A DNA stretch of 64,000 nt, taken from the IMG/VR virus record IMGVR_UViG_3300021442_000250, positions 24,031-88,030 of that record, one strand, 5' to 3'. This document shows, in pieces, positions 4,377 to 24,100 of this stretch. The position numbers and the translations under genes were made by a program. Each line of letters starts with the position of its first letter. Position 1 is the stretch's first letter. This DNA is from a virus. Its lineage: Duplodnaviria > Caudoviricetes. Below the pieces are notes generated by a model. It made no database searches and was not told where the DNA came from. It was given only the letters and a program-made list of their open reading frames with translations.

Positions 4377-7300
4377 ATGGCTGAGTTTAAACTAGGTAGA
4401 ATTAAGTTTGTTTGGAAAGGTTCCTGGGCAACTACTACAACTTATTATGTTGATGACGTAATAAGATATGGTGGTAGAACTTACAATTGCGTAACTAATC
4501 ACACATCTGGTACATTTCAAACTGATTTAGGTGCTGTAAAATGGCAACTAATGTCAGATGGTATAGAGTGGAAAAGTGAGTGGGTTGCAAATACAACTTA
4601 TAAACCAAATGATGTAGTAAAATACGGTGGTTACATTTATCTTGCTAACACTGGACATACCTCAGCGGCAACAGAAGCTTTAGGATTAGAAGCTGATCAA
4701 TCTAAATGGGATTTATTCATAGAAGGTTTTGATTGGAAATCTGATTGGACAATTTCTACAAGATATAAGAAAAACGATTTAGTAAAATATGGTGGTTCAG
4801 TTTATCTTTGTATAACAGAACACACATCAGATAACACAACAGCAGTTGGTCTAGAAGGTCAACAAGCTAAATGGGAAATTTTTGGAAAAGGTTTTGTTTG
4901 GTCAGGCGACTGGGCAATCAATTCTAGATATAAAGTTAATGACACCGTTAGATATGGTGGACAAATTTACGTTGCTATAACTGGACATACTTCAGCGGCA
5001 ACTGAAGCAGATGGTTTAGAAGCCAACCAAGGACAATGGCAAGCCTTACACAAAGGAATTGAATTCAAAGGTGACCATGCAACAGCAACAAGATATAAAG
5101 TAAATGATGTTGTAAAATATGGTGCAAACATTTGGATTTGTATAACACAACATACATCATCAGGAATTTTATCAGCCGACGAAGCAAAATGGAATGTTTT
5201 AATTCCAGGTATTGAATTTGAAGATACTTGGAGCAACTCTACAAATTATCAACCAGGTGACTTTGTTACTTACGGTGGATATAGTTATGTTGCAGATAGA
5301 AATAATATTAATAAACTTCCACCTGATGAATCAGACGACTGGACTTTATTCGTAACAGGATTTAATTTAAGAGGTGACTATAATGGCGCAACTGCATACA
5401 AACAAGGTGACGTTGTTAGAGTTGGCGGTTTCACTTACCTTGCAATTGCAGATACTACAGGTAATAGACCACCTAATGTAACTAAATGGGACAAACTTAA
5501 CGAAGGTTTATATTGGAAAGGTGCTTGGACAAATGCAACTGACTATGACAAAGGAGATATAGTAAGAGGTACAACAAACACTACTACAAGTTATCTTTGT
5601 ATAACAGAAAACACATCAAATAATGTTGGTCCATCAACAATTAATCAACCAGACTATCCACCAGGAGCAGGTGTTGATACTAGTGCATGGCAATTATTGT
5701 CAGGTGGAGCAGAAACTACTGTATTATCTACAAAAGGTGACATTTTAATTTATGGTCAATCAGGTCCAGCAAGATTACCAATTGGTAAAGCAGGACAAAC
5801 TTTAGTTGTAAACTCAGCAGGTGACTTACCTGAATGGGGATACTTTGGTTCAATCGATCAAGTTTATTATGTAGGACCTGCTGGACAAGACAAACCTTCT
5901 CCAGATGCAGGAACAACTCTTGATAAACCTTGGAAATCTTTAAGATATGCTTTACATGGCATTGAACAAGGACCAAGAAATCCTCAAGGAACTTATTTGT
6001 TAGAAAGAAACAAAGCATTCATTCAAGAAGAAACTTTAGCTTGGATTAATGCACAAATTTCAGGAAATACTTCACCATTTACAAATGCTTACACATACGA
6101 CGCTGTTAAATGTAGAAGAGATGCAGGATTTATGTTAGATGCACTTTTATATGATTTAAGACATGGTGGAAATGAAAAATCAAGATATGCAACAATTAAA
6201 ATTTCAACTCAAACTGAATTTGCAAATCATAAAGATGAATTAACAGCTTATCTTAATAGATTAGTTTATATTTCACAACAAGTTGTAGCCAATAATGCAG
6301 GCTACTCTGCTTTACAAGCCACAGTTCCTCATTATATTAATAATGATTATGTATCTGAAGCGGCTGTATCAGGTGAAATTGCAAGTTATGTAAAAATTGC
6401 AACAGATTGTCTTGCGGCAGGAAATATAGCAGGAGTACCTGCAGAAGAAGTTCCACAAACTACATTGTTTGCTAAAAGCGGAACATATGAAGAAGTATTA
6501 CCTCTTTCAGTTAAAAAAGGATTAGCAATTGTAGGAGATGAATTAAGATCAACAATTGTTAAACCAGCAGGTCAAGTTACAGGTTCAAGCGATACAGTAT
6601 TCACTTTAGCAGGTATTGGAAGAATGCAGGCTATTATATCTGATATAGTTACAAATGCTTCTGTAACACCAACACCAGTAGGCGGAGTTATATCTTTTAC
6701 AACACCAGCACCAGATTTAGGTTTTGTTAACGGAACTTATACTAACGTTGCATTAACAGGTGGTAGTGGTTCTGGATGTACAATGGATGTAACTGTATTA
6801 TCATACACAATTACATCTCTTACTATTAATAATCCAGGACAAAATTATGCAATTAATGATAACTTAACAATTCCAGCGGCAACAATTGGTGCAGATGGTA
6901 TAACAGTAGTTGGTAGTATTACAACAGGAAATAATTTAACACAAAATACATCCAACCCAGCAGGTTCAGGTGCGGCAGGAACAGCGGCGGCGGCAATTGC
7001 ACAAAATATTTACGATCATATAGATTTCAAAGTTAATGCAAATGGAGCCGATCCAACATTAACAGGTACAAATACTGCTCAAGCAGATGCAGGTTATTCA
7101 GATGCAAGATTAAGATTATTAGCAAATATGGATTTTGTTGCATTAGAAGTTGCAGAATTTGTACAAAGAGCAAATCCATCTCATAGTAACTTTAAAACTA
7201 AATGTTTGGCAGATGTTAAAATTTATCTTCAAGCAATTATGGATGACTTACAATATACTGGAAATTACAAATCATTAAAAGCATCAGATGCCTATATTAA

Positions 7301-10300
7301 TTCTAGACTTTCTACTGGTTCAAGTGCAAGTGATATGTTCTATTGCAGAAATGCAACTGGAATTAGAAATATGACAGTTCAAGGTTTAATAGGAACATTA
7401 GGAACAGATCAATATAGCACATCAGCGGCAACATATACACCTGCAACAGGAGAAATGGTATTAACTATAGGAAGCCATAGTATTCCTGTAGGGGAATCTG
7501 TTATGATTGCATCAAATAGTTTAACATTTACTTGTGCTGAAGATAGTCATGCTACTCAACATAGCTATCCAAGATCATCTGATCCTTATTACAATAAAGC
7601 AATTTTAATTACGGCTGTAGCCGCAACAACAATTACAGTAAACGTTGGTATATCAAGTAATACAACAGCACATACTTTTGTAAATGCTACTGAGGAAAAT
7701 GTAACATTAGCTTCTGCAAATGAATTTGGTACAAAAAGACCAACAGGTGGTTCTTTTGTATCATTAGATCCAGGCTGGGGACCAACACACGAAGAAGTAT
7801 GGATTACTTCTAAATCACCTTATATTCAAAACGTAACAACATTCGGAACAGGATGTACTGGATTAAAAGTAGACGGTGCATTACACGATGGTGGTTTTGA
7901 TTCTGTTGTTGCAAATGACTTTACGCAATTATGCGATGATGGTATAGGTGCATGGATTACAAATTTAGGTAGAGTAGAACTTGTATCAGTATTTTCTTAT
8001 TACGCACACATTGGTTATCTATCAGAAAATGGTGGAAAACTTCGTGCTACAAACGGTAACTCATCTTATGGAGATTTTGGTTGCGTGGCAGAAGGAGTTG
8101 ATTCAGCAGAAACTCCTACAACAGCAACAATTGATAACCATAGTGAAGATGCAGATGTTGCCAATGTAATGACAGACGGTCAAGGAATATTAGCATTTGA
8201 ATATAAAAATGCTGGAAGACAATATTCTAGTGCTACACTTTCTATATCAGGAGATGGTTATGGAATTACAGGAGAAACTCCAACTTATAATACTGGTGGT
8301 GTTTATAAAATTAGATTATTAGAAACTAATACAGTAACAAGTAACCTTGGTGGTGCGACATATATGTCTGCTACTAACAATGGACAAACAGGTTCAGCTA
8401 CACAAATTACAATAGCTAACGCAGATAGTAATGCCAGTGGTGCATACACAGGTATGGCAATTTGGATTACAAAAGGTAAAGGAGTTGGTCAATACGCATA
8501 TATTGATGCTTATGATTCTGCAAGTAAAGTCGCAACTGTTAAAAAATATTCAGATGGTTTAGCAGGTTGGGAAAGACTTGGCGGATTATCAGTTGAAACT
8601 CTTTTAGATGCTACAACAGAATATACTATAGAACCTAGAGTAGTTATTGGTGCTCCACAAAACGATGGAAGTACAACAGTTAGACAAGCAGTTGCAAGAG
8701 CAATTGTAACTTCTGAAAAGATTTCTTCAATAAGAATTATAGATTGTGGTGCAAGTTATACTTCAGCACCAACAGTAACATTTACTGATCCTAATAATAC
8801 TATAGATGCTCCAGTACAATCATTCATAGATGATGGTGTATTAGGTCAACCTACTTTCTCTGCATATGGAACAGCTTATGATACTGCAAGTGTAACAATT
8901 ACAGAATCACCTACAGGTAAAAACATAACAGGTATTACACAAGGAACTGTTGCTGTTGTTACATCAGCAGGACACAATTTAGTTTCAGGAACTAAAGTAA
9001 CGTTTACAGGTGTTGTTGGAATGACAGAATTAAACACTGGTGTATGGTATTACATTAAAACATTAACAGTAGACACATTTGGAGTTTACACTAATGATGA
9101 TTTAACTGCTGGATTAAACACTACAAACTTTACAGCATATAGTTCAGGTGGAGTTGCAACACCACAAGGTGGATTTAGAGATGAATTCCAAACAGGAAGA
9201 TATATTCAAGTAGAAGGTATGTCAGATGTTCCACAAACAGGATCAAATGTAGAATTTGATGGAATTTCAACTACAACATATCCTTATGCATATACACTTT
9301 TAACTGCAAACAAAGAATACATGAAAGATGAAGTAATAGCATGGTTTAATACAACTTATCCAGGAATACACAACGCCGCTCAAAATACTAAATGCGAAAG
9401 AGATGTTGGATATGAAATTGATGCAATGGCATTCGATATAAAATATGGTGGTAATACAGAAACTATAAGAATTGCTAAAGCATACTGGCAAGGTGTTACT
9501 TCTCAATTAGCGGCAGGCGAACAAGTATACGCAGTTGCAGTTAATAATAAATTAAAAGAAATGATTAATGATTACATTATGGATAATGTAGCCTGGTCAA
9601 CAACACAAAGTCCAGTCGTTACATCACAAACAACTAATTCTAATAATGGTGAGTTAGGTGTAAAAGACAAATTTACAAATTTAACTAAAACTTTAAATGA
9701 TGTAATTGAAAATGGTTTAACTTCTGTACCAACTACACAAGGATTAAACAATCCTTACTTTAAATTAGTAAGTGTACAAAAATTACGAGGTACTCAAGCA
9801 CCATATTCAGCATTATTACAAATTAGTCCACAGATGTCAACAGCTCAAGCTCTAGCACATGGTACTGGGATAACAGTTAAACTTAGATATTCTCAAGTTA
9901 GATTAACAGGACATGACTTCTTAGATGTAGGAACTGGTAATCAAGCATTGACAAATTATCCTGGAACGCCAAACAGAACTAACGATCAAGAAAGAGAAAG
10001 TGTTGAAAGAGGTGGTGGTAGAGTATTCTTTACTGCAACTGATCAAGACGGTAACTTTAGAGTTGGTGACTTGTTCTCAGTACAACAGGCGACTGGTATT
10101 GCATCATTAAATGCAGATGCATTTAACATTTCAGGATTACAAGAACTTCAGTTAGGAGATTTAACATTAGGTGGAACTTCTGCCTCTGTTAACGAATTCT
10201 CTACTGACGGTACATTTGCGGCAAATAGTGACAAAATTGTACCAACACAAAGAGCGATAAGAACATATGTTTCTTCACAAATTGGTGGCGGAGCAAGTGC

Positions 10301-10457
10301 AATTAACGTAAATACTATTACTGCTGGTCAAATTGTGATCACAGCTAATACTATAAATACAACAACAGGTGCAAGTATTCAAATAAATAGTGGTGTGCAA
10401 TTCAAGAAAGGTGTTGCAGGAGCACCACTGGCAATGAATTACTTGATACATAGTTAA
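4377..10457 (+). CDS. 2026-aa virion structural/tail protein, paralogue of the preceding gene
   Basis: N-terminal MAEFKLGRIKFVWKG followed by about 8 W...Y...DVV.YGG repeats; blocks shared with 3..4328 (GTKRPTGG..VSLDPG.GP, WITSKSPYI, YSQVRLTGHDFLDVGTG); late promoter at 4344. Confidence 0.75.
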   Translation: MAEFKLGRIKFVWKGSWATTTTYYVDDVIRYGGRTYNCVTNHTSGTFQTDLGAVKWQLMSDGIEWKSEWVANTTYKPNDVVKYGGYIYLANTGHTSAATEALGLEADQSKWDLFIEGFDWKSDWTISTRYKKNDLVKYGGSVYLCITEHTSDNTTAVGLEGQQAKWEIFGKGFVWSGDWAINSRYKVNDTVRYGGQIYVAITGHTSAATEADGLEANQGQWQALHKGIEFKGDHATATRYKVNDVVKYGANIWICITQHTSSGILSADEAKWNVLIPGIEFEDTWSNSTNYQPGDFVTYGGYSYVADRNNINKLPPDESDDWTLFVTGFNLRGDYNGATAYKQGDVVRVGGFTYLAIADTTGNRPPNVTKWDKLNEGLYWKGAWTNATDYDKGDIVRGTTNTTTSYLCITENTSNNVGPSTINQPDYPPGAGVDTSAWQLLSGGAETTVLSTKGDILIYGQSGPARLPIGKAGQTLVVNSAGDLPEWGYFGSIDQVYYVGPAGQDKPSPDAGTTLDKPWKSLRYALHGIEQGPRNPQGTYLLERNKAFIQEETLAWINAQISGNTSPFTNAYTYDAVKCRRDAGFMLDALLYDLRHGGNEKSRYATIKISTQTEFANHKDELTAYLNRLVYISQQVVANNAGYSALQATVPHYINNDYVSEAAVSGEIASYVKIATDCLAAGNIAGVPAEEVPQTTLFAKSGTYEEVLPLSVKKGLAIVGDELRSTIVKPAGQVTGSSDTVFTLAGIGRMQAIISDIVTNASVTPTPVGGVISFTTPAPDLGFVNGTYTNVALTGGSGSGCTMDVTVLSYTITSLTINNPGQNYAINDNLTIPAATIGADGITVVGSITTGNNLTQNTSNPAGSGAAGTAAAAIAQNIYDHIDFKVNANGADPTLTGTNTAQADAGYSDARLRLLANMDFVALEVAEFVQRANPSHSNFKTKCLADVKIYLQAIMDDLQYTGNYKSLKASDAYINSRLSTGSSASDMFYCRNATGIRNMTVQGLIGTLGTDQYSTSAATYTPATGEMVLTIGSHSIPVGESVMIASNSLTFTCAEDSHATQHSYPRSSDPYYNKAILITAVAATTITVNVGISSNTTAHTFVNATEENVTLASANEFGTKRPTGGSFVSLDPGWGPTHEEVWITSKSPYIQNVTTFGTGCTGLKVDGALHDGGFDSVVANDFTQLCDDGIGAWITNLGRVELVSVFSYYAHIGYLSENGGKLRATNGNSSYGDFGCVAEGVDSAETPTTATIDNHSEDADVANVMTDGQGILAFEYKNAGRQYSSATLSISGDGYGITGETPTYNTGGVYKIRLLETNTVTSNLGGATYMSATNNGQTGSATQITIANADSNASGAYTGMAIWITKGKGVGQYAYIDAYDSASKVATVKKYSDGLAGWERLGGLSVETLLDATTEYTIEPRVVIGAPQNDGSTTVRQAVARAIVTSEKISSIRIIDCGASYTSAPTVTFTDPNNTIDAPVQSFIDDGVLGQPTFSAYGTAYDTASVTITESPTGKNITGITQGTVAVVTSAGHNLVSGTKVTFTGVVGMTELNTGVWYYIKTLTVDTFGVYTNDDLTAGLNTTNFTAYSSGGVATPQGGFRDEFQTGRYIQVEGMSDVPQTGSNVEFDGISTTTYPYAYTLLTANKEYMKDEVIAWFNTTYPGIHNAAQNTKCERDVGYEIDAMAFDIKYGGNTETIRIAKAYWQGVTSQLAAGEQVYAVAVNNKLKEMINDYIMDNVAWSTTQSPVVTSQTTNSNNGELGVKDKFTNLTKTLNDVIENGLTSVPTTQGLNNPYFKLVSVQKLRGTQAPYSALLQISPQMSTAQALAHGTGITVKLRYSQVRLTGHDFLDVGTGNQALTNYPGTPNRTNDQERESVERGGGRVFFTATDQDGNFRVGDLFSVQQATGIASLNADAFNISGLQELQLGDLTLGGTSASVNEFSTDGTFAANSDKIVPTQRAIRTYVSSQIGGGASAINVNTITAGQIVITANTINTTTGASIQINSGVQFKKGVAGAPLAMNYLIHS

Positions 10458-10493
10458 TAATATAAAAAAGTAAAAAAAAAGGAGATAAAACAC

Positions 10494-10811: not shown

Positions 10812-10873
10812 ACTAAAACGAAAAACAGTCTAAAATGCATAAATAATTAAAATAAGGAAAAAAGGACAAAAAA

Positions 10874-11206: not shown

Positions 11207-11269
11207 TATTTTTATTATATAACACTTAACCATTAAAATTTTGTAAGGAGTTTTTAAAAAGGTAAAGGT

Positions 11270-12250
11270 ATGCCAGCAACAAGTCTAAGAGGATTATTGG
11301 GAACTAAACAAGACACGTTTGTCGCGTTCGGTGAAGAAAATCTTGAGAAAGGCAGAATATATGTTTACACTCAAGGAGCAAACTATTCGAGATTATGGTG
11401 CGGATTTTGTTTTCACCCAGGAGTGGCAGGAACGGCTACGATAGAAGTTTGGGGAGCTGGCGGTAGTGGCGCAAAAATGTGCTGTTGCGGTTTTGGCTTA
11501 CCAGGTAATTCTGCGGCATACGCCAAAAGAACTATATCATTAGCGGCTAATGGTTATGTTTGCGGATGTACTGGTCAATCATGTGGTAATGGAGATACAT
11601 TATGTCACAGAGGTTGCTCTGAACCAACTTTCATGAATATTTCCAAAGATGGCACAGCAGGTGGATGTACTTGTATTTGTGCTCAAGGTGGAGCAGGTGG
11701 AGTTTCTTATTGTTCTACAAACGAATCATTTTATTGTTGTTATAAAGCAAACGGTTTTTGTATTACAAAAACTGAAAACGATCACTGCGGTATTGTATGT
11801 AATATGTGTGATGGAAAACATATAGCTTCGGCATATTGCGGAAATGTAATGTGTCCAGGAAGAACTTCTTGTGTATCAGCATTTGGCTGTCACCCAAGTT
11901 GTCCTTGTCAATTTACTTGGCACAATCCAACTCCAGCAGGAATGTTTAGTGAAGACGGAGCATATATTACTTACAATACAGAAAATGGTAATGGATTTTC
12001 AGAATGGTCAGGCAACGGAGGTCACCAATTAGAAGCGGCACTAGGTGCTGGAAGATTTCCAACTGGTGGAATACCTTGGTCAACTTGCTGGGGAGCAAGT
12101 AAGGCTTGTAACTGTTATGAAGCAGATCCATGTATACCACACGTTCCAGTAGGAATGGGAGGTCACGGACCAATGCCTTGTGATGGAGTAAGAGATCACG
12201 GTAACAGAGGTGGCCATGGTGGAGTTAGAATTAAATGGATAACAGCATAG
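11270..12250 (+). CDS. Cys-rich Gly-rich-domain tail protein, paralogue 1
   Basis: IEVWGAGGSG, MCCCG, C-terminal GGHGGVRIKW; about 31 Cys in 326 aa by hand count. Confidence 0.6.
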   Translation: MPATSLRGLLGTKQDTFVAFGEENLEKGRIYVYTQGANYSRLWCGFCFHPGVAGTATIEVWGAGGSGAKMCCCGFGLPGNSAAYAKRTISLAANGYVCGCTGQSCGNGDTLCHRGCSEPTFMNISKDGTAGGCTCICAQGGAGGVSYCSTNESFYCCYKANGFCITKTENDHCGIVCNMCDGKHIASAYCGNVMCPGRTSCVSAFGCHPSCPCQFTWHNPTPAGMFSEDGAYITYNTENGNGFSEWSGNGGHQLEAALGAGRFPTGGIPWSTCWGASKACNCYEADPCIPHVPVGMGGHGPMPCDGVRDHGNRGGHGGVRIKWITA

Positions 12251-12258
12251 GATAAATT

Positions 12259-13263
12259 ATGGCATCATTAACAACATTATTGCAAACAAAATATGATGGG
12301 ATAGCGGCTGGAGAAACTAACCTGGAAAAAGGTACAATTTATACTTTTTATCCTGCCAACGATTATACAAACTTCCAATGTCACATATGTTGGAAACCAC
12401 CTGCCAACGGTACAGCACAATTAGAAGTGTGGGGAGCGGCTGGATCAGGTGCAGAAATGTGTTGTTGCGGTGGAGGATTACCAGGTAACCCAGGCGGTTA
12501 TGCTAAAAAACAACTAGCGGCTTTTGGTGCAAGTTGGACAGATTGTTTTGTTTGTTCAGTTATTGGTTTATCATGCGGTAACTCAGATACTTTAAGTCAC
12601 AGAGGACGTTCAGAACCAACTCAAGTTTGTTGGTTTGCCAACGACGCAGATGGATGTATTTGTTCTGAAGGTGGACAAGGAGGATGTTCTATTTGTTCTA
12701 CTGGTAATGCATTGTATTGTTGTTTTGTAGCACAAAATTATTGTCATACACAAGGTGGAAGCACTTATTGTGGAATAATTTGTAATTATAGAGATGATGG
12801 TGGAAACAGTTATGACGGTGCAGATTATTGTGCATTTGCTTATGGCGGAGATGTAAACTGTTATGGTGGATTTAGTTGTCATTACTTTAGAGGATGTCAA
12901 CCAAACTGTAACTGTAGATATATTACAGTAATTAAAGTTCCACCTGGAATGGTTTCAGAGTGCGGTGGAGAAGTTCAGTACGCACAAGATGAAGATAGTG
13001 AAAAAGTTTATCACTCAGGTTCAGGCGGAATTATGGGAGTTATGGAACCACTTAATTTAATGACAAGACAACCAACTCAAGGTTCACCTTATAATGCTTG
13101 TTGGACAGGTAATGACTCTTGTGGTTGTTATGATTTCCAAGGATGTACTCACTTCTTTCCAGGAGGAATACCAGGACAAGGACCAACACCGTGCGATGGA
13201 TATAGAGATCACGCATGGAGAGGTGGAAACGGAATATTAAGGATTAAATTTATAGCTTCATAA
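12259..13263 (+). CDS. Cys-rich Gly-rich-domain tail protein, paralogue 2
   Basis: LEVWGAAGSG, MCCCG, GGNGILRIKF; about 30 Cys in 334 aa. Confidence 0.6.
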   Translation: MASLTTLLQTKYDGIAAGETNLEKGTIYTFYPANDYTNFQCHICWKPPANGTAQLEVWGAAGSGAEMCCCGGGLPGNPGGYAKKQLAAFGASWTDCFVCSVIGLSCGNSDTLSHRGRSEPTQVCWFANDADGCICSEGGQGGCSICSTGNALYCCFVAQNYCHTQGGSTYCGIICNYRDDGGNSYDGADYCAFAYGGDVNCYGGFSCHYFRGCQPNCNCRYITVIKVPPGMVSECGGEVQYAQDEDSEKVYHSGSGGIMGVMEPLNLMTRQPTQGSPYNACWTGNDSCGCYDFQGCTHFFPGGIPGQGPTPCDGYRDHAWRGGNGILRIKFIAS

Positions 13264-13278
13264 GGAGTAAATAGTATT

Positions 13279-14250
13279 ATGGCATCATTAAAATCAATAT
13301 TGACAACAAGACAACCGGCAAGTATGTCAGAAGATAACCTAGAAAAAGGTTACATTTATGCATATTCTCCGGGTACTCAGTTTGCCAATTTTTGTAATGG
13401 TGTTTGTTGGACAGCCCTTGCAGATGGAAAAGCTATTATAGAAATTTGGGGAGCTGGTGGATCTGGTTCTCGTATGTGTTGTTGCGGAGATGGATTACCA
13501 GGTAATGCAGGAGCATATTCTAAAAAAACAATTCAAGTTAATCAAGGTGATACGTTGACAGGTACTTTAGGAATGGCTTGTAATGCTCACCCACTATGTC
13601 ACGTAGGATGTAGTGATCCAACTCAAATATGTTATATAACAACTACTGCAAGTACGCATGGTTGTATGTGTGCAAGAGGTGGATATGGTGGAAAATCTAT
13701 GTGTACAACTGGTACATCTTTCTACTGTTGTTACAATGCAGAAGGTTTTTGTACTGTAAGATGTAACAATGATAATTGTGGAATGACTTGTAACTGGTGT
13801 AATGGTGCATGGGAAGCCTTAGCATATGGTGGAGATATAAATTGTTGTGGAGAAATTGGCTGTACTAGTTGGTTCGGCTGTTGCCCTCACTGTAAATGTT
13901 TCTTCCAAAGACACGCTCCTGTACCTTCAGGACTTTTTGCAGAAAATGGAGCATTAATTACGTTCCAAACAGAATCAGATGGAACACCTATGTCGCAATG
14001 GTCAGGTAACCAATTATTCCAATATTATGCGGCTCTTAATTTGGCTACTAAATCACCAAGACAAGGTAACCCAAGATCTTATTGTTGGAGATCAGACAGA
14101 TCTTGCGGTTGTTATGAATCACAAGGATGTGCTAATTTCTTACCAACAGGATCAGGTGGACTACCACCAAATGCTTGTCCAGAAGTTAGAGACCATGGAA
14201 TCCGTGGAGGACACGGAGGAGTTAGAATTAAGTTTATAGCTTCGGCATAA
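13279..14250 (+). CDS. Cys-rich Gly-rich-domain tail protein, paralogue 3
   Basis: IEIWGAGGSG, MCCCG, GGHGGVRIKF; about 31 Cys in 323 aa. Confidence 0.6.
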   Translation: MASLKSILTTRQPASMSEDNLEKGYIYAYSPGTQFANFCNGVCWTALADGKAIIEIWGAGGSGSRMCCCGDGLPGNAGAYSKKTIQVNQGDTLTGTLGMACNAHPLCHVGCSDPTQICYITTTASTHGCMCARGGYGGKSMCTTGTSFYCCYNAEGFCTVRCNNDNCGMTCNWCNGAWEALAYGGDINCCGEIGCTSWFGCCPHCKCFFQRHAPVPSGLFAENGALITFQTESDGTPMSQWSGNQLFQYYAALNLATKSPRQGNPRSYCWRSDRSCGCYESQGCANFLPTGSGGLPPNACPEVRDHGIRGGHGGVRIKFIASA

Positions 14251-14296
14251 TAATTGCAGGAGTAGGATAAATAGTTAAAACAAAGGAACAAAGATT

Positions 14297-14950
14297 ATGA
14301 TAACAACAGCGTTTAACATAGCATTACCAAATAAACCATACGTGGACAACTTTTCAGATAATACTGTTCATGGTTCAAATTATGTTGGTTTTAAATTTAT
14401 TAAAGTAATAGTAGATGCTAATGGCTGGGTAGTAAATGCAGTTTCAGAAGCTGATACTATGGATGAAATAAACGCTCAAGCTAGTCCAGTTCCAGCAGGT
14501 TGCAGTGCAGTTGTAGTAGACGGTTCAGCAAATCCTTTTGAAGCGGCTTTTATTACAGGAAGATATACAACTGGTGCAGTTGCGGCTTATGAAGAATCAT
14601 TAGGAACAAATGATGCTAACGGTGACCCAGAAGTTTGGACATATACTTGGGGAGAAGATGGCGTTTTAAACCAAATTTATTTACATGGTACATTGAAATA
14701 CGTAGACGGGGCTTTCGTTGCGCCACAAATGAGAACACACGCACTAACTAGACAAATGTTCTTAGATTCATTAGCACCTATGTCACAAGGTTTAACAGAC
14801 GCTCTTACGGCAGATGATGCAAATACTGTTTATACAGCGGCTGAAAGACAAGCAATTGTTGATCATAAAACATACGTAGACAATATTTCTACAAAATATG
14901 CGGCAGTTGACCATTGGAAGATTCCATTCTTACCAATGCCTAAAATATAA
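14297..14950 (+). CDS. Putative tail fibre assembly chaperone-like protein
   Basis: Follows the fibre-like genes; C-terminal helix then HWKIPFLPMP resembles the Tfa-type W/FPxxP ending. Confidence 0.4.
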   Translation: MITTAFNIALPNKPYVDNFSDNTVHGSNYVGFKFIKVIVDANGWVVNAVSEADTMDEINAQASPVPAGCSAVVVDGSANPFEAAFITGRYTTGAVAAYEESLGTNDANGDPEVWTYTWGEDGVLNQIYLHGTLKYVDGAFVAPQMRTHALTRQMFLDSLAPMSQGLTDALTADDANTVYTAAERQAIVDHKTYVDNISTKYAAVDHWKIPFLPMPKI

Positions 14951-15032
14951 TAAACTAATACTTTTCAAATTATAACTCAAGAATTTTAGGTTACACTATT
15001 GGTACCTAATAAGTAATAGTGTTAATCTAACT

Positions 15033-16010
15033 ATGACTGAAAATAATCCTATAACAAGACCAAAAGCATTTTTTTTAAATGGGGGAATGGGTAGAATTAT
15101 CTGTGCTATTCCGGCCCTTGAAAAATACTATGAAGAATCTATCGACAAAGATTTTATAATAGTAGTAGAAGGTATTCAAAATATTTTAGATGGTCATCCT
15201 ACATTAGATTCTAAAACATTTGACTATGGTCATAAAAATTTATTCCACACTAAACTTGTAAAAATGGATGTGGTAAGTTTAGAACCATATAGAATATGGG
15301 AATATTATAATCAAAAATGTAATATAACTCAAGCGTTTGATATTTTAATTAATAATAAAGGTGTTAGAGAATTACCTAAACCTACAATTAATTTAAGTCA
15401 AGAAGAATTACTTGCAGGAAAAAAAGCAGTTAAAGATATTAAAGATAAACTTAAAAAAGAAAAAGTAATTGTTTTACAACCTTTTGGACGAGGGATTCAA
15501 CAAATAGACAATAGTTTTGTAGATAAAACTTGTCGAAGTATGGAATTTAAAAATATAAAAAACTTAATAAGAAAATTACAAGCAGAAGATTATGCAATTA
15601 TATTAATGGCAGAATTTGGAATTGATTTAAAAGGTGAAAAATATCCAGATGAAATAGCAATGCCTGAAGGAATTGACTTAAGAAAATGGTTAGCAATTAT
15701 AAAAAATAGTGATCATTTTTTAGGTTGTGATAGTGTAGGTCAACATTTAGCCTATATAGGTGAAACAGATGCAACAGTAGTAACTGGTGCAACGTTCCCA
15801 GTTAATACATCATATCCTAAAACAAAAGGAATTAATATTATAGATATGGGACAAATAGATAGAGAATATGATCCAATAAGAATAACAAACGATGAACAAG
15901 TTAGTAGACATAATGAAAAATTAATGTGGATGACAGATGAAGTAGAAAATTATATTATAAATGTTGTATTAGGAAAACAAAAAATTGACGAGGAAGATAA
16001 AGATGAGTAA
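15033..16010 (+). CDS. GT9-like (ADP-heptose heptosyltransferase-type, GT-B) glycosyltransferase
   Basis: N-terminal GGMGRIICAIPAL (cf. GT9 GD...PAL); HFLGCDSVGQHLA (cf. GT9 G.DSG..HLA). Confidence 0.6.
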   Translation: MTENNPITRPKAFFLNGGMGRIICAIPALEKYYEESIDKDFIIVVEGIQNILDGHPTLDSKTFDYGHKNLFHTKLVKMDVVSLEPYRIWEYYNQKCNITQAFDILINNKGVRELPKPTINLSQEELLAGKKAVKDIKDKLKKEKVIVLQPFGRGIQQIDNSFVDKTCRSMEFKNIKNLIRKLQAEDYAIILMAEFGIDLKGEKYPDEIAMPEGIDLRKWLAIIKNSDHFLGCDSVGQHLAYIGETDATVVTGATFPVNTSYPKTKGINIIDMGQIDREYDPIRITNDEQVSRHNEKLMWMTDEVENYIINVVLGKQKIDEEDKDE

Positions 16011-17814
16011 ATCAGGTTATATTGCGGCAATAGCCAGAGGACATAATGCAGGTATATGTCTATTAAAAGATGGAGAAATTGTTTTTGCAATAGAAGAAGA
16101 AAGATTATCTAGACACAAATACGATGGTGGTCCATATCGTTCAATGATGGAAATATTAAAATATACGGACAAAATAGATTATCTAGTTGTAGCTCATACA
16201 CAACCATTAGATGATCCTACTACTGGTAAAGTTGATTATACTCATGATGATGTATACACAGGGTTAGCAAGAAAATTAGGTTTAATAGATAGAAAAGCAG
16301 ATTTACAACAACACCCACAAGTAATTGACCTAAGTCATATCCATCATAAGTTACACGCCGGTTGTGCTTTTTATAGATCAGGATTTGATAAAGCCTGTTC
16401 AGTTATTGTTGATGGAGCAGGAACTTTTATGCCTGTTAATAATCAACTTACAGGAGATTTATGGATGTTTGAAATTGAATCTATTTTTGATTGCTCATAT
16501 CCTAATAATATAACAACTGTATGGAAACATTACGGTACTGGTTCTGCATCTCCAGGAGCATTTATAAAAAAACATCCTTCAGATAAAATGGGAGAACCAG
16601 GTAAAACTCATGAATGTTTATTTTCAGATGTAGCAGGAATTGTTAAAGTTTATGAAGCAATTACTCAATACTGTGGATTCTCTGCCATTGAAGCAGGAAA
16701 AACAATGGGATTATTTCCTTATGGAAAAGCTAATGATAGAATTCCTCCATTATTTCATGATGAAGTAAAATATATGTCTTTGTCTAATAGACATTTAATA
16801 ATTCCTACATATCCTAATGCGGCAATAGTAAATGAAGGCATTTATGATTACTTAGATGATACACCTGCAGATTGTCCTGATGTTACTAAACTAGATAATA
16901 GAAGAGATTTAGCATATTCTTGTCAAACAGAAACTCAAGCAGAAGTTTTAAAATTAATTTATAAAGCTGTAGAAATGACAGGTCAAAAAAATGTTGTATT
17001 ATCTGGTGGATATGGATTAAATTGTGTAGCAAATTATTGGTATCTTGAGTCTTTAAGAAAAGATGGAATTAATTTATTTGTTGAACCAGTATCAAATGAC
17101 GCCGGAACAGCCATTGGAGCGGCTCTTTTATTTTATTATGGTATAACAGAAGATATGACAAAAAGACCACTTACTACATTATGTCAAGGTCTAGAAAGAA
17201 AATATACATTAGAAGAAATAGAAAAATTAGCAAATAAATCAGGCATTGAATTAATGGACGCAAATGATAAAGATGTAGTTAAATTAATGATAGAAAAAAA
17301 TATTATTTCTATGTTTCAAGGAAAATCAGAAAGTGGTCCAAGGGCATTAGGTAACAGAAGTATTTTATTTGATCCTACATTTAAAGATGGTAAAGATTTT
17401 GTTAATATAGTTAAACGTAGAGAATATTTTAGACCTTTTGCAGGATCTATATTACATGAACACGTACACGAATGGTTTGATTTAAGAGGAATGGAAGAAA
17501 GTCCTTATATGATGTATGCTGTAAATTGTCAAGAAGGAATAGCAGAAAAAATTCCTAGTATTATACACGTAGATGGTACTTGTAGAATACAAACAGTTAA
17601 AGAAGAACAAAATCCATTGTATTATAAATTAATTAAAGAGTTTTATAATCAAACAAAAATACCAATTGTGTTTAATACGTCATTTAATTTGGCTGGAGAA
17701 CCACTTGTAGAAACATTAGAAGACGCTATATGGACTCTTGAAGAATCTCTTTTAGAATATTTGTATCTTCCAGAATATGGAAAAATGTTAAAGGTGAAAA
17801 ATGTCAAGAAATAG
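16003..17814 (+). CDS. Carbamoyltransferase (NodU/CmcH/TobZ family)
   Basis: EEERLSRHK, HHKLHA, VDGAG, GKTMGL, SGGYGLNCVAN, DAGTAIGAA, GPRALGNRS, KRREYFRPFA, HVDGTCRIQT, NTSFN; ATG at 16003 preferred over TTG at 15985. Confidence 0.93.
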   Translation: MSKSGYIAAIARGHNAGICLLKDGEIVFAIEEERLSRHKYDGGPYRSMMEILKYTDKIDYLVVAHTQPLDDPTTGKVDYTHDDVYTGLARKLGLIDRKADLQQHPQVIDLSHIHHKLHAGCAFYRSGFDKACSVIVDGAGTFMPVNNQLTGDLWMFEIESIFDCSYPNNITTVWKHYGTGSASPGAFIKKHPSDKMGEPGKTHECLFSDVAGIVKVYEAITQYCGFSAIEAGKTMGLFPYGKANDRIPPLFHDEVKYMSLSNRHLIIPTYPNAAIVNEGIYDYLDDTPADCPDVTKLDNRRDLAYSCQTETQAEVLKLIYKAVEMTGQKNVVLSGGYGLNCVANYWYLESLRKDGINLFVEPVSNDAGTAIGAALLFYYGITEDMTKRPLTTLCQGLERKYTLEEIEKLANKSGIELMDANDKDVVKLMIEKNIISMFQGKSESGPRALGNRSILFDPTFKDGKDFVNIVKRREYFRPFAGSILHEHVHEWFDLRGMEESPYMMYAVNCQEGIAEKIPSIIHVDGTCRIQTVKEEQNPLYYKLIKEFYNQTKIPIVFNTSFNLAGEPLVETLEDAIWTLEESLLEYLYLPEYGKMLKVKNVKK

Positions 17815-18748
17815 TGCTATCTTTTTAAATGGTGGAGCAGGAAGAATGATTAGTTCTATACCTGCATTAGAAAATTTTGCAAAAGAAAATCCCAATGATG
17901 ATTTTGTAATAATTTGTGAAGGCGGTACGGATGTTTTAAAAGGTCATCCAACATTATATTATAAAACATATGACAATTGGCATAAAGGACTTTTTAAAGA
18001 ATTAATAAAAGATAGAAATTGTATTAATCCTGAGCCATATAGAGTATGGGAATACTACACTCAAAAGTGTAGTCTTGCTCAAGCATATGATATTGCAATT
18101 AATAATAAAGGTATAAGAGAATTAAAAAAACCTACAATAAAATTAAGCAAAGATGAATTATTATATGCTCGAAAAATGTTATCAGAAGTAAAAGAAAAAT
18201 GCAAAAAAGACAAATTAATTGTTATTCAACCCTTTGGAAGAGGTGTTAGAAAAGAAGATAAAGACATAGTTGACATTACAGGTAGAAGTATGGAAACTAA
18301 AAATCTTTATAATATAGTAAGAAAGTTATCTAAAAAATATGCTGTAATGATTATGACTGAAACACCATTAGAATTTAATAAGCATATGTCAGCACCAGTG
18401 GCTACGCCACAAAATGTACATATAAGAATATGGATGGGTGTAATTAAACAATGTGATCACTTTTTAGGTTGTGATAGTGTAGGGCAACATATGGCTTATG
18501 TTTTCGACACAACTACAACATCAGTAATAGGATCTACATTTCCTATTAATGTATCATTCCCAAACAATGAAAAATTCAATATTATTGATTTAGGTAAAGA
18601 AGATCGTGTTTATAGTCCTATAAGAGTTACCGTAGATGAGTTCTCAGACCGTATAAATGAGGGTATTATGGAGATGGATGACCAACAAGAGCAACAAGTT
18701 ATTGCATCAGTCAATAGAATGATAAAACACGGTAAAAATACCCAATAA
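17801..18748 (+). CDS. GT9-like glycosyltransferase, paralogue of 15033..16010
   Basis: FLNGGAGRMISSIPAL, EPYRVWEYY, QPFGRG, HFLGCDSVGQH shared with the upstream paralogue. Confidence 0.6.
   Translation: MSRNSAIFLNGGAGRMISSIPALENFAKENPNDDFVIICEGGTDVLKGHPTLYYKTYDNWHKGLFKELIKDRNCINPEPYRVWEYYTQKCSLAQAYDIAINNKGIRELKKPTIKLSKDELLYARKMLSEVKEKCKKDKLIVIQPFGRGVRKEDKDIVDITGRSMETKNLYNIVRKLSKKYAVMIMTETPLEFNKHMSAPVATPQNVHIRIWMGVIKQCDHFLGCDSVGQHMAYVFDTTTTSVIGSTFPINVSFPNNEKFNIIDLGKEDRVYSPIRVTVDEFSDRINEGIMEMDDQQEQQVIASVNRMIKHGKNTQ
18356..18416 (+). repeat. 61-nt dispersed repeat, copy 1 (inside GT9-like gene)
   Basis: 57/61 identical to 56590-56650. Confidence 0.95.
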
Positions 18749-18814
18749 GCCCAATATCTACAGAAACTCTATCCTAATAAAATTGGTAAATACACTTAAA
18801 GAAGGAATCTTTAT

Positions 18815-19237: not shown

Positions 19238-19276
19238 TATGAAATTAAATTTTGATAAATATAGAGTATAGATAAA

Positions 19277-21133
19277 ATGGCAGTAAATTATAAACAGTTT
19301 GAAGCAAACTACGGATTTAAAAGCCCAGGATTTACGGTTGATAATCTTGGTAATGTATCTGTTAGAACAATTACTAATACATATACTCCGACTGCATCTG
19401 ATTCCATAGATTATACAGTTACAGAACAAACCAATAATTTTTCTATTGTAGATAAAGATAGTAATAATTTAGGATCAAACCCAGCTCTTGATTTAAAAAG
19501 AGGTACAACTTATGTTTTTGACCTTAATACTACATCTATTACATGGAATATTTTTTCACCAGATACAAATAATAATGCAGTTGCTGGAGTTTCTTATAGT
19601 ACTGGGTTATCGCATACTACAAGTATCAATGGACAAAACCTTGCAACTGATACATGGACAGTTGCACAAACTTGGCAACAAGAATCTTCATCTTATAGTA
19701 GACCTGTAACTGTTGTTGTTCCTAATACTACCGGAACACCATTACAAGGCAAACAAATTCCAGTAATTATAACTTTACACAATGCAAATCAATCGGCTGG
19801 AAATGCTATTACAAATTTAAATTATCTAACAGATAAAATTATAATTGCTCCTCAGGGTTACAGTAAAGAATGGAATACAGGATATACTACTACTAAAGCA
19901 GATGATATAGCATACCTTGATGCAATAATAGATAAGTTAGCGGATTATGACAATGTAGATTTAAGAGAAATTTCAATTCATGGTAAAGGACTTGGTGGAC
20001 AAATGGCACACCAATACGCTTTACAAACAACAAAAACAAATATTAAAAATGTAATCATTGAATCAGCATTATTCAATGAAGACCAATACAGAGAAAATAC
20101 AGGTATTTTTTACAAAATGGCTTTAGCTAATTTAGGAGATTCAACAGCAGTTTCTTGGGCACCAGTAACGCCTTTATCTAAAGCAAAAGTTATAATGTTT
20201 CATGGTGAAGAAGATTTAGCATATCCATTTAATGGTGGAGTTGTAGCTGGTCAAACTATTTTAACAGCGGCATCTACAATATATGGCTGGGCAAAAGCAA
20301 ATAGTACTATAGAAAATAAATTATTATCTGGTGTACTTCAATTAGATGGTTCTAATTTATATTCTTATAATTCAGGTAATGTGTCGCTATATGCTTATTC
20401 TAATGTAGCACAAACTTGGGAAGGAAGTGTATTAACAAGCGTTCAAACAAGAGTAAATGAGACAGCTACTCCTTCTTCATATGTAGATATTCCAACAGCT
20501 TCTACTGTAACTGGAGAAGATGCTTTAGCAAAATCTAAAGGACTTTTAAGTTTTGTAGTACCAATTGATGCTCCAGATAAACTATTTTATGGTGATGCAG
20601 ATAGAGTTCCTAGTGCGGCAATTAATATAACTAATCCTACAGTAACAGGAATTGGATCATTTAGTTCTATTCTTAATACAGGAAATTTAATAAGTTCAGG
20701 TGCAGATGCAATTATAACAATTAGTCCTACAGGTACTGGTACAGTAAATATTAATCCAGCTGGTGGTGGTACTATAAACAATGTAAATATTAATGCAACA
20801 AATTTAACAACATCTGGTGAAGTATCTATAACACCTAATTCAGATGTAACTATAAGCCCACAATTAAGTGGTACACTAACAGTAAACCCTTCAGCAACAG
20901 GATCTTTAAATAATGTGTCCGTTGGACAATCTGTTCCTAAAGCAGGAGCTTTTACTACTCTCATTTCGACGTCAGGAACGTTAAATAGTACTACAATTGG
21001 TACAACGACACCTGCCAATGCTGGATTTTTATCCGCAACGGGCGAAAGTACGCCTACAACAGGTAAACACTTGACCAATAAAACTTATGTAGACGCAACT
21101 AGTATGGCATATTCTATTGCGTTAGGGGTATAA
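19277..21133 (+). CDS. Tail-fibre-like protein with embedded degenerate alpha/beta-hydrolase (LpqC/PHB depolymerase-like) domain
   Basis: PVIITLH, IIIAPQGY, DDIAYLDAII, FHGEED hydrolase scaffold; ISP.GTG...INP fibre repeats; C-terminal NKTYVD...AYSIALG. Confidence 0.6.
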   Translation: MAVNYKQFEANYGFKSPGFTVDNLGNVSVRTITNTYTPTASDSIDYTVTEQTNNFSIVDKDSNNLGSNPALDLKRGTTYVFDLNTTSITWNIFSPDTNNNAVAGVSYSTGLSHTTSINGQNLATDTWTVAQTWQQESSSYSRPVTVVVPNTTGTPLQGKQIPVIITLHNANQSAGNAITNLNYLTDKIIIAPQGYSKEWNTGYTTTKADDIAYLDAIIDKLADYDNVDLREISIHGKGLGGQMAHQYALQTTKTNIKNVIIESALFNEDQYRENTGIFYKMALANLGDSTAVSWAPVTPLSKAKVIMFHGEEDLAYPFNGGVVAGQTILTAASTIYGWAKANSTIENKLLSGVLQLDGSNLYSYNSGNVSLYAYSNVAQTWEGSVLTSVQTRVNETATPSSYVDIPTASTVTGEDALAKSKGLLSFVVPIDAPDKLFYGDADRVPSAAINITNPTVTGIGSFSSILNTGNLISSGADAIITISPTGTGTVNINPAGGGTINNVNINATNLTTSGEVSITPNSDVTISPQLSGTLTVNPSATGSLNNVSVGQSVPKAGAFTTLISTSGTLNSTTIGTTTPANAGFLSATGESTPTTGKHLTNKTYVDATSMAYSIALGV

Positions 21134-21140
21134 AAATTAA

Positions 21141-24100
21141 ATGGCTAAAAAGAAATTAAACAATTATATATTTCAAACAGGAATTCCTAAAAACGGGAAT
21201 AATTATCCTGTAGCTCATAATCTTATCGATAAAAATAAAGAGTGGATTAAAGATGAAATGATGGGTTATATCGCTGAGAAAACATCTCAAGATACAGCCG
21301 CTGATTTATATCCTAATATATCTAACAGAATTACAAACAATAAAACTTTTATTAAAGATGAAGTATGGGCCTGGGTGGCGGCACAAGTTGCAGGTAACAT
21401 TGCTCCATTTGCCGGTTATACTAAAACTGAAGACACTGTAGAAACAGATGTAGAAGCAGTAGTAGAAGCTATTGCACGTGACGTTAGATATGGTGGAAAT
21501 GAAAATTTAAGACTTCAATCAGGTACATATTTTATAGATGGTGTACTCCAATTAGCTAACAGTGGAGATCCTGAAATCGCATATTGGGGTTATATGCGAA
21601 CACTTATAAAAGATTCTATTTTACCTGGAGGTGCATTTGGTACTTTACAAACTAGTACATCTTACACTCCTACAGGAGCAACATATACGCCAACAACTGG
21701 TGATATGATTTTAACTATTGGTGCTCACACTTTAACAGTTGGACAATCTGTTAGAATTAGTACACTTGGTTTAACTTTTACGTGTGCAATGGACAACAAT
21801 GCAACAAATCACAGTTATCCAAGAGCATCTGGTTCAGCCGCACCCGGTGGTGCTGATTTTTTTTATAATAAACCAGTTAAAGTTACAGCTAAAGATTCAG
21901 TATCAATTACTATAAACGTAGGAGTATCAAGTAATACAACAGCACATACTTTTGTAAGTGCTACTTCTGGTAGTGTACAAAGTGGAACAGTACAAGATTT
22001 AACAGGAACAAATGCTGAAAGTGCCGGTGTTACTGACTTTGATACAAAATTAGGACAATTAATTGAAACAGTTGACAATGGAATTGTTCAATTACCTGCT
22101 CTTACAAGTAGTTCTTATGTATTTGAAAATTTTACTTATAATTCAGATAAGTGCGATAGAGATTATGATTTTATTCTTGATGCATATCTTAATGATTTAC
22201 GTTACAATGGTAACAAACAAACAAGATTTATTGCTTCTAAATTCTGGGTAGGAACAACTCCTCAAATAGATGGAGATAGACAACCAGAAGTTGCCGCAAC
22301 AGATTGGGTTAGAGATTTATTAATTAATTACGTTTTACCAAATAAATCTGTAACTTTCACACCAACAAATGTAGTATACACTCCGACAACTGGAGTAATG
22401 GTATTAACTATTGGATCTCATCCTATGTTGGTTAATGAATATATTAGAATTAATACAAACAGTTTAACATTTACTTGTGCAATGGATAGTCATGCGACTA
22501 ACCATACATATCCTAGAGCGTCTGGATCAAATGCACCTGGTGGGGCTGACTATGCCTATAATGAACCAGTTAAAATTACATCAGTAAGTGCAACATCAAT
22601 TACTGTAAACGTAGGAACATCAACTAATACATCAGCACATACTTTTATAAGTGCTACTACAGGTGCAGTAACACAATCAAAACAAAATCCAGTTGTTACT
22701 ACTCAATTTACAGATGGAAATAATTCTGAATCAAACGCGACAAATAGAATAGTAACATTGTCAAATATTATTTCTGATGTAAAAGCAAATGGTTTAGATA
22801 ATTTACCAGCATTAGAAAAAAATGAAGTATCTAGTTTAAAAGTTGTTAATCCAGGTGGACAAATTAATCATGAAGATATTTTATTAATTACTAACACTAC
22901 AAGAAATACTGTATTATATAATTTTGCTGATGCAAGTCTTGGCTGTACAGTTGAATATGAAAAAGAAACTGACGATGATTTTAAAGCATTCTTACACGGT
23001 AGTGATACTGTAACTACAATATTTTTAAATGCTGATACTTCTAGCCATACAGTTGATGATGCAGTATCAATTTTTGTAGAAGGCGGCGAACTTAGAACAA
23101 GACCATTTGATTTTGGTACTGACGCAATTGAAAGATTTAGAATTGCAAAACCACAATCAATGATAGATGCTGACTTTGAATATGGTCTTCAGCCAACCAA
23201 GTGGCAAGCAATTGGAACACAAAGAGGTTATCCATCAATTTACGAAGTACCGGGAACAGATATAGATATCGCATCAGTAACAACTGACGCATCAACTGGT
23301 ACAGCAGGAATAGGTGCATCATTAATAACTGTAACAACAGTTGGCCCTCACGCCATGTTATCAGGTGATCCTTTAACTATTATAGGTTTTGCAGGATCAG
23401 GTGTAGAAGGGGCAGGTAGAGCACAAGGTTCATTTGTTGTAAATTCTGTAACATCTAATAAAATTTTTACTTACTATGCAAAAGCAAAAGTAGGAACAGC
23501 AAACGGTCAAACAATATCAACTAAATTTACTCAAATGCGTAAAGGTGCATTTTATACTGGAGCAGATTTAGGAGAACCATCGTTCTCTGTTGTATCACAA
23601 GGATCAAGTGGAGCAGTTGCAACTTCATTAAAAGTATTAGCAGGACAATCAATTGTTCCATTTACAGGAGCAACTCCTCCAACAGGAGCTCCAGTTACAG
23701 GAACAGGTATCGCAACAGGTACTCAAATTACAGCAATTACTGGTACAGGTGGAGCTTTAGTTAGTCCAAAAATTAAAGGAGATTATGCTTCAGGTGTAAC
23801 TCAAGTTGAAGTTGTAGATCCGGCAGGTATATTACAAAATTCTGTATTGGATAGAGGAGATGGTTTTGGTACAAATATTATAAACGTTAATGGAGCAGTA
23901 TTAACTTTATCAAGTCCTTTACAATCAAGTTTAGTAGGTGATCAAACAGTTTATTCAAATGTTGCTGGATTAAACAGATCACCAAATGGTACAAGTGCAA
24001 CTTGGCAAATAAGTTGGACAGGTGGTGCTTATACTGTTGTACAAGGAATAACTGGAACAAATTATCAACTTGGTGATGCAATAACAATTCTTGGAACGGC

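Follow-up and report, generated by a model that had tools for sequence, protein, structure and literature searches.

Background

The motif C-x-R-D is the bilin-binding motif of phycobiliproteins (PF00502) and of some bilin biosynthesis-associated globins (BBAGs), according to the accessible part of Rockwell, Martin and Lagarias (2023; PMC10151467). The same part describes BBAGs as bacterial phycobiliprotein relatives outside the cyanobacteria that are linked to pre-PcyA and heme oxygenase (HO) genes and bind bilins without lyases, and assigns the variant C-x-Q-D to photoglobins. Photoglobins, or photocobilins (PDB 8j2y and 8j2w), are cellular proteins fused to B12-binding signaling domains, as stated in the available excerpts of a photoglobin survey (PMC8717448). 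Here we describe a helical module bearing C-x-R-D in giant virion proteins that are encoded by a 64,000-nucleotide stretch of DNA, hereafter the window, comprising bases 24031-88030 of an 88-kb viral contig of IMG/VR (IMGVR_UViG_3300021442_000250). The module very probably belongs to the phycobiliprotein-family fold.

Light and bilins both enter the biology of cyanophages. In darkness P-SSM2, P-SSP7 and P-GSP1 adsorb, and P-HM1 and P-HM2 fail to (Liu et al. 2019). Adsorption of S-PM2 is likewise reported to be light-dependent. The accessible text of a 2024 paper on phage tetrapyrrole genes (PMC11480375) leaves the role of phage HO and PcyA open, naming phytochromes or BBAGs as possible clients, and regards it as unknown what bilin-synthesis genes do for phages whose hosts are thought to be non-phototrophs.

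Phycobiliprotein-like, PF00502 or globin-like domains of phage or cyanophage tail proteins were not found in a search of full texts, with subscription journals and supplements outside its scope. Papers on cyanophage baseplate structures from electron cryomicroscopy, among the matches listed, do not mention globins, and phages are not mentioned in the available excerpts of the photoglobin survey (PMC8717448).

Results

Motif copies in the window

The original prediction named five 22-residue stretches likened to the chromophore helix of phycocyanin alpha, and all five lie where it placed them, at nt 6108, 7200 and 9390 in the giant protein P0001 and at 21435 and 22149 in the giant protein P0002. 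A strict 18-residue pattern finds these five sites only in the six frames of the window and gave 0.0 matches per shuffle when the residues of the three giant proteins were shuffled 2000 times, so the five copies are not due to chance. Run over six frames of the whole 88-kb contig, the family profile places modules in the P0001 and P0002 open reading frames (ORFs) only. P0001 and its modules are as follows.

4377..10457, plus strand: P0001, giant tail-fiber protein of 2026 amino acids (aa), with CBM5/12 repeats, a beta-helix-like core and three inserted modules
5985..6479, plus strand: module 1, complete, aa 537-701; K-C-R-R-D helix from nt 6108; hidden Markov model (HMM) score 132.5 bits
7095..7307, plus strand: module 2, truncated, rearranged or degenerate, aa 907-977; profile positions 2-72 of 166; K-C-L-A-D from nt 7200
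9279..9758, plus strand: module 3, complete, aa 1635-1794; K-C-E-R-D helix from nt 9390; HMM score 156.5 bits

The aligned copies have in common an N-terminal helix pair (L..N+.FI..E..A[WY]), a helix reading K-C-x-R-D...D-A...D-L-x-Y-G-G-N, and three or four further helices. C-x-R-D occurs in three of the five, C-x-A-D in one, and Cys is absent from one. The motif is complete at 6108, 9390 and 22149; at 7200 the Arg is lost, which corrects the original description. The copy predicted to lack Cys, at about 21436, does so, reading T-V-E-T-D at nt 21435. A preceding L..NK.FI..E..AW helix had also been ascribed to each copy. That is not so for the one at 22149: a whole Cys-less module and a beta domain are inserted after its N..FI..E helix (aa 23-50), which puts that helix about 290 residues upstream. 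Upstream of module 2 are weak G- and H-helix-like pieces (6582-6677 and 6921-7085). In orthologs of P0001, down to 47% identity, module 1 keeps K-C-x-R-D, module 2 keeps the Cys and not the Arg, and module 3 keeps KCERD.

Predicted fold and kinship with phycobiliproteins

Module 1 was modeled with AlphaFold2 (AF2) from a 38-row alignment of the long form (A2), in which it is the first row and 36 stretches come from 36 different matched proteins. The model has a predicted local distance difference test score (pLDDT) of 88.5 and a predicted template-modeling score (pTM) of 0.84, with helices at residues 2-9, 11-27, 41-61, 65-75, 78-102 and 127-146 and the Cys at residue 44. Foldseek returned no PDB match at E <= 0.001; among the matches listed, 35 of 36 were phycoerythrins, phycocyanins, cryptophyte biliproteins or phycobilisome chains, the best with E 0.011, and template-modeling (TM) scores were 0.47-0.63 over 143-157 columns. 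A sequence-blind structural aligner superposed 140 of 164 residues with a root-mean-square deviation of 2.7. Model residues 1-145 correspond to residues 36/38-159/184 of phycobiliprotein chains, and since the match starts at about residue 36-39 the module would be the globin core minus its X-Y hairpin. The fold recurs in independent BFVD models of cyanophage tail proteins (TM up to 0.88). The globin-like fold that had been proposed for the module is thus borne out by AF2, Foldseek and the structural aligner, and the closest folds are those of phycobiliproteins.

Profile comparisons point the same way. The A2 profile gave 22 matches to PDB sequences at E <= 10, all but one of them C-phycocyanin alpha (21 of 22; best E 0.032), with A2 positions 4-58 aligned to residues 39-104 over helices A, B and E. 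In this alignment the module Cys is in the same register as the bilin-attachment Cys84 of phycocyanin alpha, with which it had been equated, and the conserved Asn of the first helix, a copy of which (ISNRITNN) had been likened to phycocyanin beta, aligns to an Asn of C-phycocyanin alpha. When the 38 rows were scanned singly, PF00502 was found in 8 (best E 5.7e-5) and any other family in at most one row each. Among 55 homologous giant proteins, 7 have a precomputed PF00502 label. Five related phage genomes were also searched in six frames: PF00502 was confined to giant module ORFs, where its matches spanned at most about 100 of the 155 model positions, with best scores of 13-20 bits, below the Pfam gathering threshold of 22.2 bits. 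The whole contig has no PF00502 match at E <= 0.001; the window's own copies are too diverged to match the family. ESM Atlas gave unnamed viral clusters only, with scores of 0.79-0.80 that are below the trust level of that tool.

Each of these sequence results is marginal alone; combined, they agree on family and register. On the model, the fold is phycobiliprotein-like. The module is very probably a new member, not described before, of the phycobiliprotein branch of globins.

Conservation across the family

A profile of the five window copies was searched against 1.84 billion cluster representatives. It matches 1287 representative proteins at E <= 1e-3 (433 at E <= 1e-30), which are 830-6382 aa long and have up to 35 module stretches in one protein. 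None is named by any source consulted, all being labeled hypothetical. Copies and column frequencies were counted in the best 150 of the 1287 proteins together with the window proteins, that is, 1593 copies in 152 proteins. The module is helical and 110-165 aa long, and copies are mostly spaced 100-180 aa apart, which implies tandem arrays of two forms, a short one (about 110 aa) and a long one (about 160 aa).

Copies share only 20-33% overall identity. Over the 1593 copies the Cys is kept in 95%, Arg(+2) in 95%, Asp(+3) in 98%, Asp(+14) in 100% and Tyr(+30) in 97%; the G-G-N columns stand at 73/66/80% and the first-helix Asn at 83%. The original prediction depended on conservation of the Cys and Asp among homologs, and both are retained (95-98%). 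Judged by these columns, C-x-R-D on helix E is evidently kept under strong purifying selection. His is never the commonest residue in any column and reaches at most 7%, at one position; helix F has no conserved proximal His of the heme-globin kind. Since no His column is conserved, a heme globin is unlikely, and so is the heme mimicry that had been suggested.

Comparison with described systems

The module has the helix order of the phycobiliproteins CpcA and ApcE (bilin-binding domain), A-B-E-F-G-H, with H usual and not constant. It shares with them C-x-R-D at the start of helix E, the Cys being in register with Cys84, and with the phycocyanin alpha chain the first-helix Asn and a Gly-Gly turn after helix E. 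Phycobiliproteins have an N-terminal X-Y hairpin for alpha-beta pairing and ring assembly, which the module lacks. The module, unlike phycobiliproteins, is embedded in phage virion proteins of 1000-6000 aa, nested or in tandem, and its bilin binding is putative. BBAGs resemble it in that they are phycobiliprotein relatives and some carry C-x-R-D. They occur with bilin-synthesis genes; module-bearing genomes do so variably, as described below. On published BBAG descriptions alone, the two differ in that BBAGs are bacterial proteins and the modules are domains of phage structural proteins; the modules also usually lie far from HO and bilin reductase genes (150 kb in one genome, G022 below), unlike BBAGs. 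Photoglobins combine C-x-Q-D with a B12 domain, whereas the module has C-x-R-D in a virion setting; the Pfam domains of the giant window proteins are CBM_5_12 repeats and an E1_FCCH domain only, with no B12 domain among them.

Phage fiber repeat rods and spectrin-type repeats are also tandem helical units of about 110 aa in long proteins. The spectrin repeat is a three-helix bundle, whereas the predicted module is a six-helix globin with a conserved polar site. A spectrin-like three-helix rod was considered when a 5-sequence profile (A1) matched alpha-actinin spectrin repeats (E 0.007) and TAF2 in PDB; it was dropped after the AF2 model and fold searches.

Occurrence and light-dependent adsorption

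Further modules were located with a degenerate DNA pattern of the motif, and matches were then judged by the family profile. At least 158 stretches of IMG/VR match, and all 158 listed are true by profile. In 596 Gb of prokaryote genomes, 36 of 97 stretches are true; the 29 of these checked by title all come from metagenome bins of many phyla, with no cyanobacterium label and no isolate among them in this one scan. The bin matches look like phage DNA binned with cells. PBPT01000016.1 (L199), a sequence of 335,231 bases binned as a Neomarinimicrobiota metagenome-assembled genome, has a true module match; it is of jumbo-clade size, and a nearly complete phage genome may have been assigned to a cellular bin by mistake.

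The module is confined to cyanophages and marine viruses in two tblastn searches of 50,697 phage records. Module 1 matched 42 (39 Synechococcus phages, 2 named 'Cyanophage' and 1 marine single-cell virus), and a module of G022 matched 210 (204 Synechococcus phages, 3 named 'Cyanophage', 2 Prochlorococcus phages and 1 marine virus); phages of other cultured hosts appeared in neither. Carrier proteins in isolates are annotated as gp7 baseplate wedge, tail fiber, short tail fiber or structural protein. The module sits in baseplate and tail-fiber proteins of marine and freshwater myoviruses, single, nested or in tandem.

Among phages of known adsorption behavior, the profile finds 5 copies in P-HM1, 5 in P-HM2 and 9 in S-PM2, and none in P-SSM2, P-SSP7 or P-GSP1. 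Copies in S-PM2 and P-HM2 read K-C-x-R-D. Module presence agrees with the adsorption phenotype in all six phages, which we regard as a lead. As a separate observation on S-PM2, 15 tRNA features are listed within a single unbroken 3792-aa frame that holds four module matches (NC_006820.1, 165928-177267); the tRNA coordinates of the record copy used here look misplaced.

Bilin supply genes

The original prediction noted no bilin genes in the window. This extends to the whole contig, about 25% of the genome, from which Fe_bilin_red, Heme_oxygenase and CpeT are absent; CpeS and HEAT_2 were not found on it either. Other module-bearing contigs, denoted here by G numbers, were searched for genes of this kind. 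Genes of ferredoxin-dependent bilin reductases (FDBRs) occur in two of the three module contigs that are at least 90% complete. The cyanophage gene psbA is present in G025 (100% complete), G028 and G044, which marks them as cyanophages whose hosts make bilins. In G022 and G047 psbA is absent, and each has adjacent HO and PcyA-like FDBR genes. G022 (328 kb, 92% complete) has a large terminase (TerL) 61% identical to that of the window phage and carries 19 modules in one 3849-aa ORF; G047 (271 kb, 100% complete) also has CpeT. A plausible bilin source is available in all five better-covered module genomes examined (35-100% complete).

Conversely, 8 of 20 FDBR-bearing viral contigs have modules. 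At a completeness of 60% or more the count is 5 of 6 contigs, four of the six belonging to a single phage type. The tail gene cluster of G066 includes cpeT and a PebS/PebA-like FDBR gene, and a giant gene with modules follows 3 kb downstream. The two genes are placed between a gp5-like hub and that giant gene, with tail-collar fiber genes next.

Tests for psbA and TerL on 47 more contigs covered fragments throughout. Among the best 80 of at least 594 TerL relatives there was no further near-complete genome, so that G022 is the single genome carrying the co-occurrence in the jumbo clade. Around the HO and PcyA-like genes of G022 (162639-166202; L161), HSP20 and ClpS genes lie upstream and genes of the curli secretion components CsgF and CsgG downstream. 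These four are unusual phage cargo and possibly hint at a non-cyanobacterial host.

Nested modules of P0002

The N-terminal part of P0002 is laid out as follows.

21141..28853, plus strand: P0002, giant virion protein of 2570 aa, whose N-terminal 570 aa hold two nested modules and two beta inserts
21207..21290, plus strand: outer module, helices A/B, aa 23-50; profile positions 3-30; AF2 helices 23-31 and 33-50
21315..21653, plus strand: inner module, helices A-G, aa 59-171, Cys-less, in the B-E loop of the outer module; T-V-E-T-D at 21435
21654..22010, plus strand: beta-rich insert 1, within the inner module's G-H loop; a 'YTP...TFTC..D...H.YPR' domain with low AF2 confidence
22011..22115, plus strand: inner module, H helix, about aa 296-325; profile to position 154; AF2 helix 291-313
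22122..22394, plus strand: outer module, helices E-G, aa 328-418; K-C-D-R-D from nt 22149; HMM score 62.9 bits
22395..22721, plus strand: beta-rich insert 2, within the outer module's G-H loop; like insert 1 in kind
22722..22832, plus strand: outer module, H helix, about aa 530-564; profile to position 156; AF2 helix 528-550

Profile matches run in the order A/B helices, inner module, beta insert, inner H, outer E-G, beta insert, outer H. Read from this order, one module, itself split by a beta domain, sits inside the B-E loop of another. Orthologs back this arrangement: in G038 the corresponding segments stand back to back without beta inserts, and G027 and G048 have a beta domain where the inner module would be. 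The equivalent of the inner module reads K-C-K-R-D in G043 and is Cys-less in G038 and G036; in the outer module C338, R340 and D341 are invariant in six of six aligned orthologs. An AF2 model of residues 1-570 from a 6-row alignment is poor overall (mean pLDDT 53.7, pTM 0.45), so helix packing cannot be judged from it; its helices, at pLDDT 70-85, come in the order expected of two nested modules, and the beta inserts are below 50. ApcE tolerates a large insertion in its B-E loop, to which the whole module in the B-E loop of P0002 may be likened.

The beta-rich domain is itself a repeat of about 110 aa with three copies, at 21654-22010 and 22395-22721 in P0002 and at about 7340-7640 in P0001. 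Its signature 'Y-T-P-x-T-G ... T-F-T-C-x-x-D ... H-x-Y-P-R' is kept in the copies and matches phrog_1276; a Pfam search of the domain gave no family.

The phage and the neighboring genes

CheckV puts completeness of the 88-kb contig at 25%, which implies a genome of about 350 kb, and the source would be an uncultured marine jumbo phage of that size. The contig encodes T4-type tail sheath, tube, neck and terminase proteins and gp32-like and UvsX-like proteins. By its large terminase the phage stands nearest to the group of Pseudomonas jumbo phage PA5oct (53% identity) rather than to cyanomyoviruses, and a related terminase occurs in at least 594 IMG/VR contigs. A megablast search of 4.6 kb from the region against phages gave no match. 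In two relatives the large terminase matches in two pieces (G022, 26682-29246; G011, 12249-15255), which lie in one 862-aa frame in G022 and in two frames or ORFs in G011. The single frame of G022 points to some 300 inserted aa, which may be an intein.

The first 29 kb of the window is dominated by three giant plus-strand ORFs, P0003, P0001 and P0002, which PHROGs labels as tail fiber or virion structural proteins. The first of them served as an internal comparison:

243..4328, plus strand: P0003, a 1361-aa paralog of P0001, with no module

P0003 and P0001 have CBM5/12 N-terminal repeats, a beta-helix-like core and a similar C-terminus in common; the shared core includes the stretch '...GTKRPTGG.[FY]VSLDPG...WITSKSPYI.N...FGTGCTGLKVDG'. 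P0001 looks like a fiber of the P0003 type with helical and beta modules inserted.

Between two of the giant fiber genes, at 11270-14250, ORFs of 326, 334 and 323 aa form a tandem set of three paralogs; each matches phrog_4205, whose function is unknown, and local G+C rises to 0.40 there. The fiber gene cluster also includes, at 15033-18748, a Nol-like carbamoyltransferase gene (15985-17814) with phrog_8954 paralogs on both sides, and this group could be a glycan- or fiber-modifying cassette. Directly upstream of P0002, a 618-aa ORF (19277-21133) has alpha/beta-hydrolase matches below the cut-off (Peptidase_S9, E 0.0017; Chlorophyllase, E 0.0026).

Discussion

We propose that the Cys-bearing modules would take up a linear tetrapyrrole within the infected cell, supplied by a cyanobacterial host or by the phage's own HO and bilin reductase. 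The bilin would be held as a thioether, formed autocatalytically as in BBAGs or by a CpeT-type lyase, and assembled particles would then bear pigment on the structures that recognize the host. In the most speculative step, the pigment would act as a light sensor that gates adsorption; it might also screen or quench light, or merely stabilize the fold. The chance that the modules bind bilin seems about even, and so does that of this explanation as a whole. Gating of adsorption by light through such a pigment is unlikely. The full picture, in which baseplate and fiber arrays of covalently bilin-loaded modules form a virion-borne photoreceptor that permits adsorption only in light, is rather unlikely. 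Support for a bilin function, and for the tetrapyrrole binding, light sensing or photoprotection first suggested, is circumstantial and consists of the restriction to cyanophages, the HO and FDBR cassettes of psbA-negative relatives and the adsorption match.

Several observations weigh against this proposal. About 5% of copies lack the Cys, one of them in the window, where another copy lacks the Arg, and up to 35 copies in one protein are more like a structural repeat than a sensor. The five window modules match no Pfam family at E <= 10. The window contig, about a quarter of its genome, has no bilin gene; G025, a complete genome, has no HO, FDBR or CpeT, and G022 has no CpeT, CpeS or HEAT-type lyase. 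Of 48 module contigs that reach 40 kb or more, 3 have an FDBR gene, though absence says little here because most contigs are fragments. FDBR counts are not independent, as G047, G056, G057 and G058 are one phage type. P-SSM2, which encodes ho1 and pebS, has no module by profile. The agreement of six phages in six comes down to roughly two positive lineages that are independent and two to three negative ones: P-HM1 belongs to the same species as P-HM2, both podoviruses are unlike the myoviruses in everything, and P-SSM2 is the sole like-for-like negative. To our knowledge, there is no report of colored cyanophage particles.

The main rival explanation is that the module carries no ligand and is an apo structural repeat, in which a phycobiliprotein-derived or sister globin serves as a rigid spacer or decoration and the conserved residues serve folding or contacts between modules. 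We judge this somewhat doubtful. Many copies per protein and the degenerate copies favor it, as do the tandem arrays with copies 108-180 aa apart and the way copies are shuffled, nested, truncated and broken by beta domains, like structural repeats. Cys-less and Arg-less copies persist, and the genomic gaps just described, a contig without bilin genes and G022 without a lyase, also count in its favor. Yet a buried polar set of Cys, Arg, Asp, Asp and Tyr held at 95-100% against 20-33% identity is unusual for a pure spacer, and the residues conserved here coincide exactly with the bilin contacts of the homologous family, as given in the accessible part of PMC10151467. An apo module also leaves the restriction to cyanophages and to phages with HO and FDBR unexplained.

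It is improbable that the module is a globin that binds some other ligand or partner, whether a small molecule (in the manner of the non-heme globin RsbR or of a heme sensor), a metal held by Cys and Asp, or, as a host-protein mimic, a lyase, linker or NblA. The Cys and three acidic positions on one face of helix E would suit a ligand, and the protein that the module most resembles, C-phycocyanin alpha, is a host protein. Canonical heme ligation is made unlikely by the lack of a conserved His column, and the motif is C-x-R-D, not the C-x-Q-D of photoglobins. Mimicry of a host partner fits poorly with fibers that would face the host surface and not the cytoplasmic phycobilisome machinery.

Convergence or artefact, with a generic helical bundle whose chance C-x-R-D draws AlphaFold2 and profiles to phycobiliproteins, is very improbable, since five partly independent methods (Foldseek, the sequence-blind aligner, the PDB profile, the Pfam model and precomputed Pfam labels) agree on family and register, the PDB profile match spans helices A, B and E beyond the motif, and the helix order A-B-E-F-G-H agrees, with the same fold in independent BFVD models.

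Conclusions

Even if the module is apo, it brings viruses into the phycobiliprotein lineage through a family that is very large and unannotated, with 1287 representative proteins, and it makes globin domains nested and tandem building blocks of phage fibers. If bilin is bound, this would be the first case of a virion structural protein that carries a pigment and potentially senses light, and small lyase-independent bilin binders would be candidate fluorescent tags. The proposed photoreceptor, if true, would explain the light-dependent, photosynthesis-independent adsorption of S-PM2, P-HM1 and P-HM2. It would also explain why psbA-lacking phages of possibly non-cyanobacterial hosts synthesize bilins with HO and PcyA/PcyX-type cassettes, and perhaps why phages have CpeT, the client being the phage's own virion. 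Both the mechanism of light-dependent cyanophage adsorption and the purpose of phage bilin genes would then become testable.

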